In this document: positions 1-44,085 of the stretch, in pieces | How positions within the stretch are numbered: position 1 is the stretch's first letter | How the letters are laid out: each line of letters starts with the position of its first letter | Assembly: GCA_022567695.1 (NCBI GenBank) | Contig: JADFGN010000001.1 | Span: 1 to 51,576 of the forward strand | Reading direction: 5' to 3' | DNA: 51,576 nucleotides | Source of the DNA: Candidatus Poribacteria bacterium | GTDB taxonomy: Bacteria > Poribacteria > WGA-4E > PCPOR2b | Notes under the pieces: generated by a model | The model's input: only the letters and a program-made list of their open reading frames with translations | Told to the model about the DNA's origin: nothing | Databases searched by the model: none | Made by a program: the position numbers and the translations under genes

Positions 1-3
1 GCA

Positions 4-747
4 TTGGACTATTTCATCGACTTCGCCCGGCCTGTTGGCGACTTGAGTCTGAATCTGTACGACTATCACCTCCGCCCCGCTGGCGCTGGCGGTGCTGGTA
101 TCGGTGACACGGCGACTCTGACGGCTTTTGCTGATGCGGCAAGAACTGTACCTGTTGGAACAGATGTGTTCACGATTATTTCCGACCTTCCTGATGGCAA
201 TGTCGCAACGTTGTCCATTTCTAACCCTTCAGCACTTATCCTTGCAGCATCTCTGGTGTTTAGCACCGGTGATGCGGGAAACGGGATTGACAATATCCGA
301 TTTATAACTGACCTCGTTGACATCGACCTCAAGCCAGGGAACAATGAAAACGTGGTTGACCCCTTCAACCTCACCAGCAACAAGCCCGTAAACGTAGCTG
401 TGTTATCGACCACTTCCTTCGACGCCACAACCCTTGACCTGACCACCGTGAAGTTGGGTGACCCGCTGTTGACTCCGACTGTCGACGCTGTAAGTAGTAC
501 CCAACAGGACGTTAACGGAGATGGTCTCACGGACGTGGTTTTCAACTTCGGGGCCGCACGCGATTTTGGAAATGCGGGTGCCTTGGACGCGAACAGTGTG
601 GCGGTGCTTCTGACCGGCACTACACCGAGTGGAACCGTGGTTGGACATGATGATGTGAAAATTGTAGGAGGTGGAAATGCCCCTCCAGCGTTTCGCCCCC
701 GCTCAAAACTCACGACAACGTGGGGAAGAATTAAGACACAGCGGTAA
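4..747 (+). CDS. Secreted/surface protein, 5'-truncated by the window edge, ending in a KLTTTWGRIKTQR C-terminal tag
   Basis: The frame is open from the window edge to TAA at 745-747. The sequence is T/V/D/N-rich and beta-type, with a DVNGDGLTDVVF loop. The last 13 aa match the C-termini of the LamG proteins at 6116 and 7140. A hairpin+T6 terminator follows. Confidence 0.7.
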   Translation: MDYFIDFARPVGDLSLNLYDYHLRPAGAGGAGIGDTATLTAFADAARTVPVGTDVFTIISDLPDGNVATLSISNPSALILAASLVFSTGDAGNGIDNIRFITDLVDIDLKPGNNENVVDPFNLTSNKPVNVAVLSTTSFDATTLDLTTVKLGDPLLTPTVDAVSSTQQDVNGDGLTDVVFNFGAARDFGNAGALDANSVAVLLTGTTPSGTVVGHDDVKIVGGGNAPPAFRPRSKLTTTWGRIKTQR

Positions 748-1031: not shown

Positions 1032-2288
1032 TCAATAAGTTGCCTGAATCGCCAGTGACACAATATTATTCTTGTAATTCAGAAAATCAAAAATCTCAGA
1101 TTCTTCATTGGTATCGTTTTTGATAAATTGATAATCCGCGAAGAGTGTGAGATTATCACGGAATTGCCAGTTAAGCTGGAGATTCAGACCGATTTGATCG
1201 TCCCTTCGGTCGTCAGCGTTCTCAGCGACGAAACCGCTCTCGTCACGGACTTGGCGTCCATCAAACTTAATTCCCAAACGGGATAAGCGCACGCGCGCCC
1301 AACTCCTTGAGTTAATTTTATAAAACGCACCGATGGCGGCTTCAATGCTAGAGAAATCGTAAAACTCAACGTTAGATCTGTTCAGAAAGATATTCAATTC
1401 TTCTTGCAGTACCAACCGCCCCGTGGCGATTTCAAGTAACTTCACAGAGCCAAAGTGTCGAACATCCGTCCGGGATTCTCCGGGCTTAATCCCTGCGGCA
1501 CCAAGTACAAGACTGTTGAGATTATCTTTATACGCCTCTCGTTCAATTGAATATTCTAGCTTTCCCAAAAGCTGCTTGAAAAAACCGAGTTGAAGCCGTC
1601 CTACCCCTTGATGACTCGTAGCTCCAACAAGGAGGAAATCCTCACGTCGGGTTTGATCGTCATCAAACCGTTGCGCACGCAGATTATACTCCAACACCTT
1701 GCCAAACCGAAAACCGATCTGATGTTGTAGGCTGTCGAAAGCGGAGTCCTTTCGACTCAATCGTTGGAGCTGATAAGATGTGGTTAGGGGAGGTAGTTTC
1801 GACGTCGGTTGGAAGTTCAATTCGGTCAAAAAGGGAACGGCAAACCCATCAAATTCATTGAGCTTTCCGTCTTCACCAATATAGTTCTCAAACTGCGGAC
1901 TGGATTGCAGTTTGAGCCAGAAACGTCTGCCAAGCGGCAATGTGCCTTGAAAATTGATGCTCCCCCGATTGATGATTCCGAGAAGCTGAGGATCGTCCCG
2001 ACCCGCGAGGCTACTGGTGTTCGGGTCAATACTCAACCCAAATTCGACATGGTCATTAAAGATATTACTCACCTGATAGTCGATTGTAAAGTCTCGTTCA
2101 ACAGCTTTGGATTCTTCTAATCTCTTTTGAAGTAACTCCCGACCGAATTCGCTTCGAATCTGTGCCGAAGCGATTGATACGCTCATTAGTAAGAAAATCG
2201 TAGAATAGAACCGTAAGAAAGACTTGAAGTTTGGTCGGTAGGCTGGCGTGTACAATGCGTCACTCCTTGTTTGTGGCAACAGGCTCAA
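1032..2288 (-). CDS. Outer-membrane beta-barrel protein (family not recognised)
   Basis: 418-aa ORF with a signal-like segment ...FLLMSVSIASAQ and an alternating amphipathic strand pattern throughout. The C-terminus ...SLAIQATY ends in an aromatic residue, as in OM beta-barrels. The listed start is TTG, so the true start is uncertain. Confidence 0.6.
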   Translation of the reverse strand: MSLLPQTRSDALYTPAYRPNFKSFLRFYSTIFLLMSVSIASAQIRSEFGRELLQKRLEESKAVERDFTIDYQVSNIFNDHVEFGLSIDPNTSSLAGRDDPQLLGIINRGSINFQGTLPLGRRFWLKLQSSPQFENYIGEDGKLNEFDGFAVPFLTELNFQPTSKLPPLTTSYQLQRLSRKDSAFDSLQHQIGFRFGKVLEYNLRAQRFDDDQTRREDFLLVGATSHQGVGRLQLGFFKQLLGKLEYSIEREAYKDNLNSLVLGAAGIKPGESRTDVRHFGSVKLLEIATGRLVLQEELNIFLNRSNVEFYDFSSIEAAIGAFYKINSRSWARVRLSRLGIKFDGRQVRDESGFVAENADDRRDDQIGLNLQLNWQFRDNLTLFADYQFIKNDTNEESEIFDFLNYKNNIVSLAIQATY

Positions 2289-2517: not shown

Positions 2518-3687
2518 CTACCTGATTTTGTAAATGTGTACGTCGTATGCCCTAAAGTCGTCCTCAAACTGACCTTCTCTGACATCAAGGTCTCGGTTCT
2601 CCCCGACGACTTCCGCCACGGCAGAAGTGGGGAGATCTCGGATTTTGAAAGTTGCCCGTGTCGGTGCATTACGCATCCCCACGGCAAAGAGATAGGTTTG
2701 CCCTTCATACCGCTTCAGCATGGTAGCTACCGGAACATCTTCACGACTTGATTTCACCAATGCTCCATCCTTGACTGTTGGACTGTTCAACACGGGGGCA
2801 AGTGAGTGAATCTGCTTGTTGATGGCGGTCACGGCGGCGAGCATCTCTGCATCCTCAAGGAGCGCAGCTTCTTTGAATTTCGGCTTGAATTCATGGACGA
2901 ACCAGATGATGCCTTTCGATCCGTGAATCAGCGACATCCACACTTCAGCACGAACCTGGTGTGGGGTTGCTTTCGCTTGTTCATTGGAAATGTGAGTGCA
3001 TTCGAGGACATTCCAGACGATCTGATTTCCTTTTGTCCACTCGACAAGACGGGAAACCCCCTTGGCAACGTACCAGAGATAATTCTCGCCGTCCGGTTTT
3101 CTAATCCCCACAACAGGGTAAACATCGAATGAAACCACGTCGCAGCCTTTCACATAGGTGAGGTAATCATCCAGATGCGCGCCTTTCCCACGCCCCTTCC
3201 ATTCATCGTTGGCCACACCTTGCCCCAAATTCAGAAGGATCGGACGTGTTGAATCGGCGGCCTGAAGGCGTTTATAATCCGCAACAATCTGCTGTGGCGG
3301 GATAGGACCGCCATAGGTCTTCTGCCCTGTCTTGGGATGAATAATTGGTTGCGCGTTGTCCGGTTCGTCACCGTGCATCCAACCGACGATGATTGGCTCA
3401 TTGCTGTGAGCCAGCCCGACCTTGTTCTGAGAACAGATAACCGGCATTCCCGCTTCCTTCAGCGCAGCAAGTTGTGCCGTTGTGGGTCCCTTCCAAAGCC
3501 CGATGTAAAGGTTGATACCAGCCGCCTTGTATTTGCTCGCGTTTTTCGGATGCTGTAGCCACACCCCAATCGGGAAATAGTTCGGATGGGATGGCAGCCC
3601 GTTCTTCCATCGTTCATAGGCTGCCAGCGCGACACTTGTATTTAGCGCAAAAACCACAGTGATAATGAGAAAAATAACGAGCTTCAA
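2518..3687 (-). CDS. Secreted hypothetical protein, possible TIM-barrel glycosidase
   Basis: 389-aa ORF with signal peptide MKLVIFLIITVVFALNTSVALAA, 10 nt downstream of the DegT gene on the same strand. Acidic motifs (HGDEPDN, NVLECTH) fit a glycosidase, but I could not recognise the family. Confidence 0.5.
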   Translation of the reverse strand: MKLVIFLIITVVFALNTSVALAAYERWKNGLPSHPNYFPIGVWLQHPKNASKYKAAGINLYIGLWKGPTTAQLAALKEAGMPVICSQNKVGLAHSNEPIIVGWMHGDEPDNAQPIIHPKTGQKTYGGPIPPQQIVADYKRLQAADSTRPILLNLGQGVANDEWKGRGKGAHLDDYLTYVKGCDVVSFDVYPVVGIRKPDGENYLWYVAKGVSRLVEWTKGNQIVWNVLECTHISNEQAKATPHQVRAEVWMSLIHGSKGIIWFVHEFKPKFKEAALLEDAEMLAAVTAINKQIHSLAPVLNSPTVKDGALVKSSREDVPVATMLKRYEGQTYLFAVGMRNAPTRATFKIRDLPTSAVAEVVGENRDLDVREGQFEDDFRAYDVHIYKIR

Positions 3688-3697
3688 GATTTTCCTC

Positions 3698-4906
3698 CTA
3701 ACTGCTCGATTTCAACTCGCCTACATTCCGACGAACCTTCATCGCGGCGTTAATGATATCTTCCATATCCTCTCTGCTTCCCATCAAAACGCTCTGCCCA
3801 AGTGACAAGCCGGTTTGACATATCTTTTCGACTTCGGTACAGTGGATACCTGAATAATCAAGCGGGGTGCTGAAGAAATCTGATTGCGTCAGTGGATTTT
3901 GATACATCGGCGTTGTGTACCAATGCCCCATGGGGATGCCTTCCGCTCGCATCGCTTTGAGAAAGTCTGCGCGGGAAATACCGTCAAATTCCTCCGAATC
4001 AAAAATCGCTTTATAGCCGTGGCACCCGCAACGAGTCGCCCGCGGATCGAGGACAACCACTTTAATACCCGGAATTTCCCCCAACCCTTGATCTAAAAAT
4101 CGCATGTTCATATTACGATGATTTGTTTCCGCTTCGAGCCGTCCAAAGCGTGAGAGCAAAAGCCCGCCTTGCCATTCCGTCATCCGGAAATTGCCTCCGA
4201 GTGGTTCTATCTCCCCAAATTCGGCATCGGCCGGTGGACGGCCACAGTTATGAATTGCCCATGCACGCTCATACAACTTTCGATCGTTGGTGAGGACGAT
4301 ACCCCCTTCGCCGGCGCAGAGGTTCTTCGACGCCTGAAAACTGAAGCAACCGAAATGCCCCCAACTACCAACGCCCACGCCACGCCACTCGGCACCATGC
4401 GCTTGTGCGCAGTCTTCAACCACGAGTAGGTTATGCTTATTGGCAATCTCCATAATGGCGTCCATATCCGCCGGATAGCCCGCGATATGCACAGGCAGAA
4501 TGGCCTTTGTCTTTGTGGTGATTACCTCCTCAATCTTTGACGAATCGATGTTAAAACCGTCGGGCAGTGTGTCGACAAAAACTGGTGTCCCGTTTGCCAT
4601 CAGGATTGCTACGGTCGTCGCTTGAAACGTGTAAGGTGTTGTGATGACCTCATCTCCAAGTCCGATTCCTGCCGCCTTGAGCCCGATATACAAAGCTGCA
4701 GTTCCGCTGTTAACACAGATACCGTATTTTGCCCCTTGAAATTCAGCGAAACGTCTTGCAAACTCCGGCACTTTTGGACCATGCCCCCATCGGCCGCTAC
4801 GGTAGATCTCTTCAAAAACTTTGAGATCGCTATCATCAAATGTGGGCCACGAAGGGAAGGATTCAGTCCGGACAGGTGTTCCGCCGCTAACTGCTAAATT
4901 CGCCAT
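3698..4906 (-). CDS. DegT/DnrJ/EryC1/StrS-family PLP-dependent sugar aminotransferase
   Basis: 402 aa. It carries the family motif FSFQASKNLCAGEGG (PLP lysine) and the N-terminal pattern WP..D......E....SGRW. Confidence 0.85.
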   Translation of the reverse strand: MANLAVSGGTPVRTESFPSWPTFDDSDLKVFEEIYRSGRWGHGPKVPEFARRFAEFQGAKYGICVNSGTAALYIGLKAAGIGLGDEVITTPYTFQATTVAILMANGTPVFVDTLPDGFNIDSSKIEEVITTKTKAILPVHIAGYPADMDAIMEIANKHNLLVVEDCAQAHGAEWRGVGVGSWGHFGCFSFQASKNLCAGEGGIVLTNDRKLYERAWAIHNCGRPPADAEFGEIEPLGGNFRMTEWQGGLLLSRFGRLEAETNHRNMNMRFLDQGLGEIPGIKVVVLDPRATRCGCHGYKAIFDSEEFDGISRADFLKAMRAEGIPMGHWYTTPMYQNPLTQSDFFSTPLDYSGIHCTEVEKICQTGLSLGQSVLMGSREDMEDIINAAMKVRRNVGELKSSS

Positions 4907-6115: not shown

Positions 6116-6916
6116 TTATTGAGTTTTTTTGATGTTGCCCCATGTGGTTGTTAGTTTGTCAGCAGGTTCTACAGGAAGTGCCGATTCAAAACCTAGGAAA
6201 ATCGCCTGAACCTCCTCTTCAGTCAGCGCCACATTGAAAATCGCAACTTCGTCAATAAGGGCGTTTCCAAATCTCGGTGCGCAACATTGATCCTGTCCAA
6301 TCCAGAGGACATCAAGATCCTCCGCAATCGGTGTTTTAGTAAGATCAAGCTCGCTCTCTACTACCGCATCGATATAAATTTTCCACTCACCGGTTTTGCT
6401 ATCGAAAGTGCCGGTGTACATATGCCATTCGGTAATATCTTTGGGACCTACTGCTCCGTCGTTCCATCCTCCTGGCTGATTCCAACAGCCGCCATTGCAA
6501 AGAGGGAAAGCTACAACAGTAGTCCCCTGATCGGGATGAATAATATACGCGTCCCGTTTTGAAACAGCAAATCCGTGCGTACCCCATGCAGGAGTGGGGC
6601 TTTTCATCCATAATGAGACGGTTATCGCTTTTGTTGGATTTTTATGCGCTGGCACCTCAACAAAAGCCGCTTTGCCGTCGAACTCTAGTGCTTTACCAAA
6701 CACACCATCGACCCATTTCGGATTACCTTTAAGAGCTCCGTCAAGTTTATTGCCAGAAGAATCTTTGGCAACTTTTCCTGTCCCTTCATCAAACAGCCAT
6801 AACCCCGTAATCGTAGCGGGGTCAATTTCGGCGGCAATACTTTGGCCTGCGGGTATGAGCCCAATAACCATTAGACTGATACACACGAGGGTGATTCTTG
6901 ATACCATGACTTTCAT
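6116..6916 (-). CDS. Secreted LamG/concanavalin-A-like lectin domain protein with C-terminal KLTTTWGNIKKTQ tag
   Basis: 266 aa with a signal peptide. The LamG-type pattern is GLWLFDEG.G....D.SGN...G.L.G.P.WV.G.FG.ALEFDG....V.V. It is a paralog of 7140-7946. Confidence 0.8.
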   Translation of the reverse strand: MKVMVSRITLVCISLMVIGLIPAGQSIAAEIDPATITGLWLFDEGTGKVAKDSSGNKLDGALKGNPKWVDGVFGKALEFDGKAAFVEVPAHKNPTKAITVSLWMKSPTPAWGTHGFAVSKRDAYIIHPDQGTTVVAFPLCNGGCWNQPGGWNDGAVGPKDITEWHMYTGTFDSKTGEWKIYIDAVVESELDLTKTPIAEDLDVLWIGQDQCCAPRFGNALIDEVAIFNVALTEEEVQAIFLGFESALPVEPADKLTTTWGNIKKTQ

Positions 6917-6975
6917 CTTTTACTACCTCCTATTTTTCATTGTTCTAACTTCACTTTAAATTGCGAAGTGCCAGC

Positions 6976-7004
6976 ATTATAGCACAGTCGCAAAGAAAAT
7001 TCAA
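6976..7004 (-). promoter_or_regulatory. Sigma70-type promoter TTGAAT-17-TATAAT
   Basis: The minus strand reads TTGAATtttctttgcgactgtgcTATAAT. The -10 element is about 60 nt upstream of the ATG at 6916. Confidence 0.6.
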
Positions 7005-7056
7005 CGACGAAGAAAATTGACCATTTTTCCACAAACCGTGGGGCATCATTCATTCA

Positions 7057-7097
7057 CCCCAAAACCGCTCTTAGAAAAACTGAGAACGGTTTTGGGG
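7057..7097 (-). terminator. 11-bp hairpin downstream of the LamG gene at 7140 (no clear T-tract)
   Basis: CCCCAAAACCG (7057-7067) pairs with CGGTTTTGGGG (7087-7097). Confidence 0.3.
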
Positions 7098-7139
7098 TGT
7101 TCTGATTAATCATTTTAGTCTGGAAACTCACATTACTCG

Positions 7140-7946
7140 TTAATATTGGGTTTTAACATTAGCCCATGTGGTTGTTAGTTTGTCAGCGGGTTCTACAGCC
7201 GCAAGTACCGACACAGAAAGTCCATTGTTCATGAGGTCTTGAATGTCGGCTTCACTCAGTGCCACATTGAAAATCGCAACTTCGTCGATGGTGGCACTTC
7301 CATATCTCGGGTCGCAACATTGATCGCGTCCAATCCAGAGGACATCAGTATCCTCATCGACCGGAGTTTGATCAAGGTCAAGAGTGCTCACGACTTCCGC
7401 ATCGACATAAAGCTTCCACTCACCCGTTGAACTATCAAAAGTGCCCGTGTACATATGCCACTGCGTGATATCTTCGGGCCCCGTTGCCCCGTCGCTCCAT
7501 GCGCCAGGCAAGTTCCAACAGCCGCCGTTGCAAAGAGGGAAAGCAACATCGGTAGTACCCGAATTTGGATGAATAATATACGCGTTCCTTTTTGACACCA
7601 GAAATCCGTTCTGACTCCATGTATCAGTCGGGCTTTTTACCCATAGTGAGATTGTTATGGCTTCAGTCGGATTTGAATGCGCCGGGACCTCAACATAAGC
7701 CGCCACACCATCAAACTCCAGCGCTCCACCAAATCTACCAGCGACCCATGCCGGGCCATCTATGAGCGTTGCGTCAAGACCGGCGCCAGAAGAATCACTA
7801 GCAACACTTCCGCTACCGTCATCAAACAGCCATAATCCCGTAACCGTGTTGCGGTCAATTTCGGCAATACTTTGACCTGTGAATATTAGCCCAGTAAGAA
7901 TTACACTGATACATACCACCGCTATTCTCGCGACTCTAACTTGCAT
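7140..7946 (-). CDS. Secreted LamG/concanavalin-A-like lectin domain protein with C-terminal KLTTTWANVKTQY tag
   Basis: 268 aa with a signal peptide. It aligns along its full length with the 6116-6916 product and shares the CNGGCW and DQCC cysteine motifs. Confidence 0.8.
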   Translation of the reverse strand: MQVRVARIAVVCISVILTGLIFTGQSIAEIDRNTVTGLWLFDDGSGSVASDSSGAGLDATLIDGPAWVAGRFGGALEFDGVAAYVEVPAHSNPTEAITISLWVKSPTDTWSQNGFLVSKRNAYIIHPNSGTTDVAFPLCNGGCWNLPGAWSDGATGPEDITQWHMYTGTFDSSTGEWKLYVDAEVVSTLDLDQTPVDEDTDVLWIGRDQCCDPRYGSATIDEVAIFNVALSEADIQDLMNNGLSVSVLAAVEPADKLTTTWANVKTQY

Positions 7947-8116
7947 CTCTCATTACCTCCTTTTTCATTGCGTTAGTATTCTGCCGTTTACCCAAGGCAA
8001 AAAGAACGAGTTTTCGCATGTTGCGAAATTCATGGCGTCGGAAAACGCCGACATTTCCAAGCTATTTCAGAGTTGAATTTCAACCATAATCCCTAATTCT
8101 ACTTGGAGATAAAAAC

Positions 8117-8145
8117 ATCATAGCACATATCACAAATCGTGTCAA
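8117..8145 (-). promoter_or_regulatory. Sigma70-type promoter TTGACA-17-TATGAT
   Basis: The minus strand reads TTGACAcgatttgtgatatgtgcTATGAT. It lies about 170 nt upstream of the ATG at 7946. Confidence 0.6.
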
Positions 8146-19228: not shown

Positions 19229-19347
19229 AGCCTGTCCTCCGTGAAATGTGATGCGTATTGTGATGTAAGTTCTTCGGCGAGTAGCTTACCTTATAGCCAT
19301 CGCCATGTCAAAGGAAATCTGACAACTTTGATTTGTGGGAAATTAGA

Positions 19348-19376
19348 TTGACAGCGGGCGGCGACAATGCTATCTT
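19348..19376 (+). promoter_or_regulatory. Candidate promoter TTGACA-17-TATCTT
   Basis: TTGACAgcgggcggcgacaatgcTATCTT, 26 nt upstream of the ATG at 19402. Confidence 0.4.
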
Positions 19377-19401
19377 TATTGGCATAGGTAAGGAGTTTGC
19401 G

Positions 19402-19761
19402 ATGAGACTATGTTACAAAAATGCCTTTCTGCTCTGCGTCTTGCTTTTCGCAGGTTGTGGCACAACATACCAATCTGGAGAACGGATAACGGCAAGAAGC
19501 ACAAATCCCTACTTTGAGCTAGGGAACATCCATCTCAAGCAAAAGCAGTATCACAAAGCAATCGAACAGTATCAGCAGGCATTGCGAATCCATCCCGACT
19601 CTGCGATTATACACGTGGCACTCGGATGGGCATACTACAATGTGGGAATGTTTGACGCAGCAATCGCGGAAGGCGAGGAAGTCATGCGCTTGGAACCGAA
19701 CCATCCAGATGTACCGAAGTTGATGGAATTGCTCCGACAGTTGCGAAATCGCCGAAGGTAG
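19402..19761 (+). CDS. TPR-repeat lipoprotein
   Basis: ATG at 19402 with an AGGAG SD. The lipobox is LLFAGCG. TPR-like repeats are present (YHKAIEQYQQALRIHPDSA...). Confidence 0.7.
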   Translation: MRLCYKNAFLLCVLLFAGCGTTYQSGERITARSTNPYFELGNIHLKQKQYHKAIEQYQQALRIHPDSAIIHVALGWAYYNVGMFDAAIAEGEEVMRLEPNHPDVPKLMELLRQLRNRRR

Positions 19762-32299: not shown

Positions 32300-33679
32300 A
32301 TGTTTGGGAAAATAAAGTGTTTGTTTTTCGTCTTGATTGTGATGGTCGTTGTTGGATGTGCAGACAATCAATTTTACGATGAGCAGCTTCAAATGAAAAT
32401 CCAACAATTAGACAGTGACTTAGCGAATCGATGGTCCACGACGGGGGTGGTCGTCATATCACCGGGCAAAGCGAACCTTGAGCAAGGTGAATTGATCTCT
32501 TATGTGATTAGCGAATATCCCATCAACAGTCGCAGGGATTATAAACGTGCAATCAAGCGCGCAATGAAGAAAGATAATAACTTTGTCTTTCTTATGGGAG
32601 ATGGAGCCAAGATTCGTATCGCCGTCCGAAGGAGCGGTGATAAAGTTGGTATTGATGTCGATGGAAATCGGGTCAGCAAGGTGGATGCGGGAAGTCCTGC
32701 GGCGAACGCCAACATTCAGGTGGGGGACACCATCAAAAGTGTGATTGATGAGCGAAAGATTGCGACGATTAAGGATTACAAGAAAGCCGTTAAAGAGTCT
32801 CCAATTGCATTCCGCACGACTGAATTGGTTGGGGTCAAGCTTGCCGCTGTAGATGCCCTCGGTAACTTGGGGGACGCACGGGCTGTGGATGCTTTGGTAA
32901 ATATCCTCGAAAAGAGTTCAGAAACTTCTCTGCGCAAGACAGCAGCTAAAGGGCTAGAACGCCTTGTGGCTTTGAGCCAATTGAACGGACTGTTTCAGAA
33001 ATTTCAACAAGCAGATGCCAATGAGCTTCCTGCGAATGAATTAGATTCGCGTCAACGGGAATCTGCCGAAATCCTCGGCTTGCTTACAGTCGATCTTGAG
33101 AAAAATCAGGCGACCTTAAATGAACCATTTGGTACACAATTTCGGCAAAGGTCTAAAGCGTTGCATCAAAGGGTCAACCAAGAGACTCTCGGTGAATTGG
33201 CAACAAAATATATCAAGCGTCAGATCGAACCCAACCCAGAGATTCGACGGGCGTGCATATCTATTTTGGGAACTTTGAAACCAGAATCTGCAATTGCAGA
33301 CCTAATCGCTGTGATGGAAGATAGCGTAGAAGTCCGCGGCATTCGTTTTCAAGCGGGGCTAACACTCAGTCAGATTGGCCAGTCCGCAGTCCAGCCTCTC
33401 ATTGACGCCTTCAATCGTGGCGATGTCGGTGTCAAAGATATTGCGGCATCTGCACTTGGTAACATCGGTGGGAGCAAAGTGAGAGATGTTTTAATCCATA
33501 TACTTCCAACCATAGAGGACCCAACAATTAAGCTCACGGTTGTTGACGCCATTGCGAAAATTGGCGATAAGCAGTCGATCAATGCACTTCAAGAAGAAAA
33601 AATGCGACTCCAAAAGGGCAGTGGTCTGGGAACATTCCTCAATGAACTGCTTGCACAGCTTGAAGCACAATCGATGTAG
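32300..33679 (+). CDS. PDZ-domain plus HEAT-repeat lipoprotein
   Basis: The lipobox is VVVGCAD. A PDZ-like segment VSKVDAGSPAANANIQVGDTIKSV is followed by HEAT units (AVDALGNLGDARAVDALV and others). Confidence 0.65.
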   Translation: MFGKIKCLFFVLIVMVVVGCADNQFYDEQLQMKIQQLDSDLANRWSTTGVVVISPGKANLEQGELISYVISEYPINSRRDYKRAIKRAMKKDNNFVFLMGDGAKIRIAVRRSGDKVGIDVDGNRVSKVDAGSPAANANIQVGDTIKSVIDERKIATIKDYKKAVKESPIAFRTTELVGVKLAAVDALGNLGDARAVDALVNILEKSSETSLRKTAAKGLERLVALSQLNGLFQKFQQADANELPANELDSRQRESAEILGLLTVDLEKNQATLNEPFGTQFRQRSKALHQRVNQETLGELATKYIKRQIEPNPEIRRACISILGTLKPESAIADLIAVMEDSVEVRGIRFQAGLTLSQIGQSAVQPLIDAFNRGDVGVKDIAASALGNIGGSKVRDVLIHILPTIEDPTIKLTVVDAIAKIGDKQSINALQEEKMRLQKGSGLGTFLNELLAQLEAQSM

Positions 33680-42604: not shown

Positions 42605-42834
42605 GGACGTTGTTTTCTCCTACAAAGCATTAAATGGTCATCTCGCAACTGCCTTCGCTAAAAGATAAGTCATTATCGAACATTTTGAAGACCGTCGAAA
42701 AATAGACAAAAGTATACACTTTTGAAATAAATAGACACTCCCAAGCACTTGACAATTCCACAGGAGGAGTTAGAAAGGTTGTTTGGAATGGTGTTGTAAG
42801 TGTAGCAGAATTCATCTTACAAATCAACTCGAAA

Positions 42835-42862
42835 GTAGGGGCGAGGCATGCCTCGCCCCTAC
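42835..42862. repeat. REP-like palindrome, family B (GTAGGGGCGAGGCATGCCTCGCCCCTAC)
   Basis: A perfect 28-nt palindrome. Its right half is partly duplicated at 42862-42883. A second copy is at 45402-45429. Confidence 0.65.
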
Positions 42863-43170
42863 TCGAAAGGCATGCCTCGCCCGAAATGTAGGAGTTATTT
42901 CGTAGCCATTCCTTAACTCCCCAAGATGCACGCTAAATGAACAGCTGCTTGCTGATCTCCCTCCGGCCAACTGTGCTGTGCTAATGCGTCAGTATGTGTG
43001 TGACCATCCCGCACACTTCCTTTATATCTTTTCAACCGTCCCAAGAAGATCTGTTTCCGGATTAAATTCCATGCAGGTTTGATTAAGTGGTATTCGGGCT
43101 TCCCAAGAATGAATATCGGTATTTAAACATCTGGTGTGAGTTTTCTCAGATCCATTGATGATAAGGGTTT

Positions 43171-43210
43171 GTAGTTGCCCAATTTCTGTTTTTGAAAACT
43201 TAATTGGGTA
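43171..43210 (+). repeat. REP-like unit with GTAGTTGCCC head
   Basis: GTAGTTGCCCAATT...AATTGGGTAA. The same head occurs at 43946-43955 and, on the minus strand, at 43306-43315. Confidence 0.45.
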
Positions 43211-43275
43211 ATCGGACTTCTCAAACCCTTGTGCCACCGACGGGCAGGGCCTTTATCACCAAAGCCCAATGAATT

Positions 43276-43315
43276 GCGTGAGGTCTGTCCTCCCACCCGA
43301 AGGGCGGGCAACTAC
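43276..43315 (-). repeat. REP-like unit (minus strand GTAGTTGCCCGCCCTTCGGGTGGG...ACAGACCTCACGC)
   Basis: The hairpin CCCGCCC-ttc-GGGTGGG has a G-U pair only on the minus strand. It shares GCGYGAGGTCTGT and CCCACCCGAAGGG with 51331-51423. Confidence 0.45.
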
Positions 43316-43690
43316 GGTCGTAATTCACACCAAGCGTTCAAGATTGCGGAATTCTGAGGTCATCATAGATAGCCGACATATTTAGATACGCTTCGCTGCA
43401 AAGGCTTGCAAGCATTCTTTACGACATCAGCCTATCGAATATTCCCCTTGAAGGGATTGGGTTTTGATAACTACACCATTCTAGTCTAAGGGCGGAAGCA
43501 TTGTCCGCCCCTAGTTTGCGCTACCGTCCGATATGCCCGAAAGATGGCGATCAAGCACAGGCTAGTGGAATGACAACCACCCTAGCAGTCATTTTCATCT
43601 ATTGCAATCTCAAGGTTTTCAAGGCACCCCAAGTGGCTGTGGCTTTATCTCTAGGGCTGACGGCGAAAGTGTCCATTCCGAAGTTTTTAA

Positions 43691-43802
43691 GTAACCGTTC
43701 AGCCACCATAGACATTCTTGGCTCGTAGTAACGACTTGAGTCGTTCATAGCTGGCCGGAACGACTCAAGTCGTCACTACAGTGCTACCCCCTGAACGGTT
43801 AC
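43691..43802. mobile_element. MITE-like 112-bp element: 12-bp perfect TIRs, 8-bp TSD, family-A REP core
   Basis: The TIRs are GTAACCGTTCAG (43691-43702) and CTGAACGGTTAC (43791-43802). They are flanked by direct GTTTTTAA repeats (43683-43690 and 43803-43810). The interior carries the GTAGTAACGACTTGAGTCGTT...AACGACTCAAGTCGTCACTAC palindrome (43725-43779). Confidence 0.45.
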
Positions 43803-43876
43803 GTTTTTAACTACTGTTAGGCGACATCTTAGCATAATCCCCTCAGACTATCAAACTATTTCTACTCCACTTGCGC

Positions 43877-43905
43877 GTGACAAATCAACACAACTATGGT
43901 ATACT
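43877..43905 (+). promoter_or_regulatory. Candidate promoter GTGACA-17-TGgTATACT for the GT2 gene
   Basis: GTGACAaatcaacacaactatggTATACT, about 180 nt upstream of the ATG at 44086. Confidence 0.4.
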
Positions 43906-44085
43906 CTACCTCAACAATGTTAAACGTTTGGCGTGGATTATCTCTGTAGTTGCCCGGTTATGAGGATAAAAAAATAATTGGGTAATTATAATGGCGTGGC
44001 CCGCTACAGCGGATTGGCTACCTTCCGTCTCATTTTCTTTTCCTTCCCGCCTGCATCCTTTTCCTAACTGGCAAGTGAGGTTACA

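Follow-up and report, generated by a model that had tools for sequence, protein, structure and literature searches.

Two genes lying head to tail near the start of a 51,576-nucleotide (nt) stretch of Candidatus Poribacteria DNA (contig JADFGN010000001.1, hereafter the window) encode small LamG-domain proteins that end in the same short peptide, which we call the tag. An initial annotation, made from the letters of the window alone, had described this pair as signal-peptide LamG proteins that align along their full length. Both open reading frames (ORFs), here named LamG1 and LamG2, were found as described and lie on the minus strand (Table 1). BLASTP aligned the two proteins over their full length with 179 of 266 positions identical (67%, E = 9e-136), so the paralogy holds and the by-eye estimate of about 60% identity was slightly low. 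The genes are 75% identical at the DNA level, and no homologue in the loci that we fetched comes as near to either protein, the highest identity being 60%. Both match the Pfam family Laminin_G_3 (PF13385; E = 1e-19 and 71.5 bits for LamG1, E = 7e-24 and 85.1 bits for LamG2, against a cut-off of 27.6 bits), placing them in the Laminin_G_3/concanavalin A (ConA)-like group. No NCBIfam model matched either protein at E <= 1.

Both proteins start with a signal-peptide-like N-terminus and contain the CNGGCW and DQCC cysteine motifs that the annotation had pointed out; across 54 homologues, the Cys, Asn, and Trp positions either never vary or show conservation of at least 90%. An AlphaFold2 model of LamG2, based on the 54-sequence alignment, is a beta-sandwich with a confident LamG core and a predicted local distance difference test score (pLDDT) of 88. 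The Foldseek neighbours of this core are generic ConA-like jelly rolls with 12-19% identity. Every LamG2 homologue that bears a name belongs to Candidatus Poribacteria; among the best 120 homologues, the strict tag motif is retained at the C-terminus in 103. LamG1 and LamG2 encode small exported LamG (ConA-like) modules that probably bind glycans.

The ending common to the two proteins is VEPADKLTTTW[GA]N[IV]K followed by three residues. The same tag closes an unrelated gene truncated by the start of the window; its protein, ending in ...RPRSKLTTTWGRIKTQR, was a singleton in BLAST clustering, hence not a LamG protein, and matched no Pfam or NCBIfam family. A looser six-frame scan of the window gave four tag-like endings, each 3-5 residues before a stop codon, and the strict degenerate pattern matched three times against 0.00 matches expected from 100 shuffles. 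Within the window, the tag is therefore present on three proteins of two unrelated families, and it also ends a 49-aa orphan ORF whose resemblance to tagged proteins is confined to its last 20-50 residues. This ORF is probably what is left of the 3' part of a tagged gene.

Table 1. Coordinates of the tagged genes and associated features. Positions are those of the window unless a fetched locus (L number) is given. HMM, hidden Markov model; TPR, tetratricopeptide repeat; CTD, C-terminal domain.
Feature	Position	Strand	Description
LamG1 gene	6116..6916	minus	266 aa; signal peptide, Laminin_G_3, linker helix, C-terminal tag
LamG1 tag	6119..6172	minus	VEPADKLTTTWGNIKKTQ; fits the phylum-wide logo
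LamG1 promoter-like site	6976..7004	minus	TTGAAT-17-TATAAT with TG; 60 nt before ATG
Terminator-like hairpin 3' of LamG1 stop codon	6068..6105	minus	-23.8 kcal/mol, z = -2.6; followed by UUUU
LamG2 gene	7140..7946	minus	268 aa; tandem paralogue of LamG1
LamG2 tag	7143..7196	minus	VEPADKLTTTWANVKTQY
LamG2 promoter-like site	8117..8145	minus	TTGACA-17-TATGAT with TG; 171 nt before ATG
Terminator-like hairpin 3' of LamG2 stop codon	7055..7099	minus	-35.1 kcal/mol, z = -6.8
3' part of unrelated tagged gene at window start	1..747	plus	ends in FRPRSKLTTTWGRIKTQR; tag at 691-744
Orphan ORF	43599..43748	minus	49 aa; ends in FAVSPRDKATATWGALKTLRLQ; tag HMM 15 bits
Exported TPR protein gene	L083:4669-6018		directly downstream of 1-2 tagged LamG genes
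Exported TPR protein gene	L125-L128, at 6001-73xx		directly downstream of 1-2 tagged LamG genes
Long-CTD protein	L003:3278-4870		near tagged genes
Long-CTD protein	L003:5593-7425		near tagged genes
Long-CTD protein	L079:7540-7998		near tagged genes

We built a logo from 130 non-redundant tags to define the element. The tag is about 18 residues long and has the consensus [LTF]-[APS]-V-[EDS]-P-x-[GD]-K-L-[AT]-T-T-W-[GA]-x-[IV]-K, followed by 1-7 residues (mode 3). Over 16 positions, specific residues are conserved (V, P, K, T, T, W, G, and K). The search pattern did not include the Val at -5 (96%) or the Pro at -3 (76%), whose conservation therefore confirms the motif independently. The conserved Thr, Val, Pro, and Leu are encoded by all of their synonymous codons; because these sites vary freely, selection is on the peptide rather than on a DNA element. 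Among the trailing residues, Arg makes up 25% and Lys 8%, and R or K comes last in 45% of tags; the final position is R, Q, or K in 76 of the 130 and Y or F in 19. The initial annotation had held that neither a hydrophobic helix nor a basic tail follows the motif. The helix is indeed absent, and the claim about the tail holds only in part, given the abundance of Arg and Lys in the trailing residues.

The mean hydrophobicity of the tag is about 0, with no hydrophobic segment, and between the first Lys and the C-terminus it carries a net charge of +2.8. Calculated as a beta-strand, the hydrophobic moment is 0.39 against 0.23-0.29 for shuffles, an alternating, strand-like pattern; calculated as a helix it is 0.32 against 0.30, so the tag is not an amphipathic helix. 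In the AlphaFold2 model of LamG2, the core has a pLDDT above 90 and residues 252-268 fall below 50. The modelled tag is a free tail and forms no strand of the LamG fold.

We searched one genome for each of 185,579 species with a degenerate DNA pattern for K-x-[STAP]-T-T-W-[GA]-x-[IVM]-K. The pattern occurred in at least 117 stretches, and 103 among the matches listed are labelled Poribacteria. Two Pseudomonas matches are out-of-frame chance hits, 19 residues from the stop codon. Eight stretches are labelled "uncultured bacterium", one of which is clearly Poribacteria, with 87-96% identity to a Poribacteria locus. The Poribacteria matches include metagenome-assembled genomes (MAGs) from the deep sea and deep ocean, from the Arabian Sea, and from other non-sponge sources. 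DNA of the window itself is present in marine-sediment and subsurface metagenomes, which points to a free-living lineage rather than a sponge symbiont. Taken together, the non-sponge MAGs and the sediment origin of the window show that the tag is phylum-wide and not an adaptation to sponge symbiosis.

The tag is restricted to C-termini, as the initial annotation had supposed. In the fetched loci, 130 of 133 strict matches sit 1-7 residues before a stop codon. A tag HMM run on 6,999 ORFs of at least 40 aa, from 117 loci and the window, found 131 strict and about 37 relaxed tags (about 168 ORFs), every one at most 12 residues from the end, and no internal match above 8 bits in these ORFs. We also searched 1.84 billion cluster representatives with a profile made from the window tails and short database fragments, which returned 856 clusters (50% identity) at E <= 0.001. 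The tag lies at most 7 residues from the C-terminus in 155 of 163 retrieved database proteins, and the other 8 are read-throughs of 12-20 residues. Hardly any members of these clusters bear a name, and the one organism named is Poribacteria. A search with a 45-column tag alignment returned 22 short fragments, apparently selected for similar length, and is unsuitable as a census.

The tag is also modular. When the last 22 residues were removed from 126 carriers and the remainders were compared by BLAST, the proteins fell into 30 clusters, with 82 carriers in one LamG supercluster. Carriers include Pfam domains of at least nine kinds (PD40, Kelch, F5/8-C, PA14, DUF4960, CBM_4_9, CBM9, HmuY, and Laminin_G_3, including divergent LamG), and many have no Pfam domain at all. 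The motif thus extends beyond the LamG family; confinement to that family would have reduced it to simple paralogy. Export is the feature common to nearly all carriers: a signal-peptide-like N-terminus occurs on 137 of 145 (94%), compared with 121 of 452 control ORFs from the same loci (27%; Fisher p = 3e-51), the enrichment that the initial annotation had proposed to look for. Only 3 of the 145 have a later transmembrane-like segment. Most carriers are short proteins (median 268 aa; 225-321 aa between the 5% and 95% points), and nearly all are non-catalytic modules of the binding type.

We compared the tag with known C-terminal signals. No Pfam or NCBIfam model (June 2026) matched the isolated tails, even at E <= 10, and our literature searches gave no description of the motif. 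The initial annotation had set the tag apart from LPXTG, PEP-CTERM, GlyGly-CTERM, and MYXO-CTERM signals and from the longer CTD of the type IX secretion system (T9SS), and the logo and the NCBIfam search bear it out. The T9SS CTD (type A, TIGR04183; type B, TIGR04131) resembles the tag in being C-terminal, in lacking a transmembrane segment, and in occurring on many unrelated Sec-exported families; it is likewise found in a restricted set of diderm phyla, and it acts after export to the periplasm. However, it is a folded beta-sandwich of 70-100 aa, whereas the tag is about 18 unstructured residues without similarity to TIGR04183 or TIGR04131. Kamke et al. 2014 (PMC3909097) reported TIGR04183-like CTDs on poribacterial proteins and no Por secretion genes in single-cell genomes. 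We found long T9SS-type-A-like CTDs (NYPNPFNPETWIPYQL...ATRKMLIRK; FlgD_ig) on other, larger Poribacteria proteins, never preceded by the tag. Three of these proteins are encoded near tagged genes (Table 1), one of them also with cohesin and dockerin modules, and the phylum therefore has two distinct C-terminal signals. A reading of the tag as the N-terminal lead-in of a long CTD was rejected, as it yielded one weak look-alike (L079) and no tag HMM match followed by a CTD.

Like PEP-CTERM/exosortase, GlyGly-CTERM, MYXO-CTERM, and LPXTG signals, the tag is lineage-restricted and sits at the extreme C-terminus of signal-peptide proteins. PEP-CTERM comes with further points of likeness, namely a short Pro motif (V-P-E-P, compared with V-E-P, or V-[ED]-P, in the tag) and a basic end, and LamG-type proteins are frequent PEP-CTERM cargo. 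It differs in its transmembrane helix: in the tag, the 13 residues between the motif and the basic end contain two Lys, average about 0 in hydrophobicity, and form no hydrophobic segment, and no TIGR02595-type match was found. The logo contains no LPXTG, GlyGly-CTERM, or MYXO-CTERM motif or helix, and NCBIfam gave no match to these models. Short linear C-terminal peptides that direct many unrelated proteins to one receptor are known from the peroxisomal targeting signal PTS1, read by PEX5, and from the beta-signal of outer membrane proteins (OMPs), read by BamD. PTS1 differs as a tripeptide at the very end of proteins in the eukaryotic cytosol. The OMP beta-signal differs in its aromatic end and its beta-barrel carriers; aromatic ends are in the minority among the tags, and the tagged proteins are soluble lectin and propeller domains. 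Dockerin-cohesin pairs and the cargo peptides of encapsulins and microcompartments offer another parallel, as modular C-terminal appendages that recruit diverse proteins to a scaffold, and the cargo peptides are also short and disordered. Poribacteria also encode cohesin and dockerin proteins. Dockerin, however, is a Ca-binding domain of about 70 aa, and PF00404 matched none of the tagged proteins; encapsulin and microcompartment cargo is cytoplasmic and lacks signal peptides, unlike the exported-looking carriers of the tag.

Based on these comparisons, the tag is probably an undescribed type of C-terminal signal, an address or docking tag. The initial annotation had suggested a lineage-specific sorting, anchoring, or beta-strand-complementation signal. 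A lineage-specific C-terminal signal survives the tests of family, position, and known domains, and its function, whether sorting, anchoring, or strand complementation, is something that we infer. With moderate confidence, we favour a signal that is read by a receptor and by which proteins already exported by Sec are sorted or docked in the cell envelope. Carriers would be exported by Sec and lose their signal peptide, leaving the tag as a flexible tail on a folded domain. A dedicated envelope receptor would then bind the tag by its specific sequence, the peptide probably being extended or in beta-strand form, and diverse small binding modules (lectin-like domains, carbohydrate-binding modules [CBMs], and propellers) would be docked at one destination, which might be the outer membrane, the cell surface, or a shared scaffold. 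The tag could afterwards be cleaved, for example near V-E-P, or simply held; the data are compatible with both. The carrier set would suit surface display of glycan-binding proteins by a glycan-degrading organism.

Among the alternatives, direct anchoring to lipid or lipopolysaccharide would dispense with a protein receptor, the cationic Trp tail binding the membrane or an anionic surface polymer much as the C-terminal amphipathic anchors of PBP5 and MinD do. The net positive charge, the invariant Trp with its flanking Lys and Arg, and the short tail left unstructured in the monomer model are in keeping with such a role. We nevertheless consider it unlikely, as the helical moment is close to that of shuffles, the mean hydrophobicity is near zero, and lipid-binding tails are usually conserved in composition only. 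Conservation of 16 specific positions together with the strand-like pattern favours protein-peptide recognition over direct lipid binding. The extreme C-terminal location is also typical of Prc/Tsp- and PDZ-type recognition, so a periplasmic tail-specific or PDZ protease might read the tag as a degron or processing signal controlling turnover or maturation, and the window does encode an exported HEAT/PDZ lipoprotein (32300-33679). Such proteases prefer hydrophobic ends; the variable distance of 1-7 residues from motif to carboxylate and the polar or basic ends of the tag argue against this type of recognition. A constitutive degron under strong purifying selection on hundreds of unrelated modules would be hard to explain, and we regard a protease signal as quite improbable.

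A structural role within the carriers, in which the tag donates a strand for homo-oligomerisation or completes the fold of its own protein, would account for the strand-like residue pattern, and most carriers are beta-sandwich or propeller folds. The AlphaFold2 model leaves the tag unpacked on the LamG core, and the same peptide occurs on Kelch, HmuY, DUF4960, and CBM proteins, among which a fold-specific element would not transfer. The unrelated folds and the modelled tail together make a structural role very improbable. The simplest explanations, namely paralogy, chance, or a DNA-level element at gene 3' ends, can point to the large LamG supercluster, which holds nearly two-thirds of the clustered carriers. 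They are refuted by the 29 other clusters with their different Pfam domains, by the shuffle expectation in the window, and by codon variation, as the freely varying synonymous sites also rule out a conserved DNA element or mobile cassette, and we find them scarcely credible.

TPR domains are well known for binding C-terminal peptides as receptors, as in PEX5-PTS1 and BamD. In 7 of 10 cases, a TPR gene adjoins a tagged gene and has the same orientation. For neighbour enrichment, TPR genes are adjacent in 6 of 10 cases, compared with a background of 0.20, and these cases collapse to about three syntenic groups. The LamG-TPR arrangement was found in L064, L083, and L084, and in four further closed genomes anchored on the TPR gene, one or two tagged LamG genes lie directly upstream, at 14-96 nt, in all four. 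The gene encodes an exported TPR protein of about 448 aa. A database search with this family gave 359 clusters, of which the best 120 show 67-100% identity, and Poribacteria is the sole organism named among the matches. This protein is a candidate tag receptor, and we treat the pairing as a lead, not as proof. The parallel with TPR-read signals lies in its conservation beside tagged genes, the link itself being a prediction. More tentatively, there may be an undescribed Poribacteria-wide post-Sec sorting or display pathway in which a linear peptide of about 18 residues, without a transmembrane segment, marks hundreds of small glycan-binding modules and the TPR protein is the candidate reader.

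Several observations weigh against a dedicated docking system. The LamG-TPR pair lies in a wholly syntenic region, so the adjacency may reflect gene order or a partnership with one LamG protein and not the tag system. The genes beside tagged genes, the TPR gene excepted, are mostly common Poribacteria families, among which no dedicated partner stands out. The distribution of tagged genes is patchy, with no tagged gene in the 50 kb around helicase homologues at seven loci, and the window sequence was found in no RNA run. Finally, four short contigs binned to other phyla (L037, L061, L074, and L096) carry tags; they may be mis-binned, or the tag may also occur beyond the phylum.

Time and again, new envelope machineries have been discovered through C-terminal sorting signals, among them sortases, exosortases, rhombosortase, and the T9SS. 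The architecture of the tag, short and linear, without a membrane anchor and on Sec substrates of a diderm, is found in none of these. If the post-Sec pathway exists, the tag would add a third architecture to bacterial C-terminal sorting signals, after the tripartite type of sortases and exosortases and the folded CTD of the T9SS. The tag marks a coherent set of lectin-like, CBM, and propeller proteins in a phylum noted for degrading glycans and for its sponge symbionts, and without cultured members. As a simple sequence handle, it allows the glycan-binding proteins of Poribacteria that are probably at the surface or secreted to be listed from any MAG, and it offers a route to the receptor or enzyme that reads it. 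The tag HMM could serve as an annotation model, which Pfam and NCBIfam currently lack.

Some features of the TPR genes and of possible peptide-binding proteins deserve mention. The TPR protein has an unusual "W-C" after the hydrophobic region of its signal peptide. In L125, a gene for an IS605 OrfB/Cas12f-like TnpB protein (2642-3853) lies just upstream of the tagged LamG pair and is absent from the orthologous loci L126-L128. In the window, the HEAT/PDZ protein named above is a predicted exported lipoprotein with HEAT repeats and a PDZ domain, encoded on the plus strand, and a predicted small TPR lipoprotein (19333-19761, plus strand) has sub-threshold similarity to BamD (44 bits, cut-off 81). 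Both domain types bind peptides, and any link to the tag is conjectural.

Upstream of LamG1 and LamG2, the initial annotation had noted a sigma70-type promoter for each gene with a common -10 context and had concluded that the promoter was duplicated along with the gene. Both sites are present and are strong, sigma-70-like, and of the extended -10 type (Table 1). The duplication is not borne out: the two upstream regions can be aligned solely around the ribosome-binding site, the promoter flanks are not homologous, and the sites lie at different distances from their start codons. The likeness in TGTGCTAT(A/G)AT is that of the extended -10 consensus and is therefore no evidence that a promoter was copied. 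The region contains four promoter-like sites in total, compared with 4.4 expected from shuffles. The hairpins that follow the stop codons are likely both terminators. With its own promoter-like site and its own hairpin, each gene appears to be transcribed separately, as a monocistronic unit.

The surroundings of the 49-aa orphan ORF are unusual. The ORF lies within a segment of about 650 bp (43305-43956) flanked by 42-nt imperfect inverted repeats (43305-43346 and 43915-43956, 79% complementary), and a near-perfect 22-nt hairpin (43725-43779) overlaps its start. The repeat has no further copy in the window or the fetched loci. The surrounding 1.5 kb (42605-44085) contains no long ORF, Rfam match, or tRNA. 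The segment could be the scar of a small mobile element that broke a tagged gene. Many other short ORFs of 20-100 aa consist of little more than the tag (P0121-P0142 and P0181; loci L012, L029, L046, and L096), and P0181 has two tag-like segments in tandem. These tag-only ORFs have the appearance of pseudogene relics or C-terminal pieces of tagged genes, which would point to frequent decay and turnover of such genes.

Facing the tagged gene at the window start, in convergent orientation, is a gene (1032-2288, minus strand) for a 418-aa signal-peptide protein with a C-terminus typical of outer-membrane beta-barrels (...VSLAIQATY). This protein has no Pfam or PDB sequence match and only weak similarity, far below cut-offs, to EpsL/TIGR03016, a PEP-CTERM-associated outer membrane family. 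Rfam and tRNA scans of the window gave no match. Elsewhere, the window encodes proteins typical of Poribacteria, including a PhyH dioxygenase, a sulfatase, a Gfo/Idh/MocA oxidoreductase, and a xylose-isomerase-like TIM barrel, as well as a gamma-glutamyltranspeptidase, a PMT_2 glycosyltransferase, and a B12-binding radical SAM enzyme.

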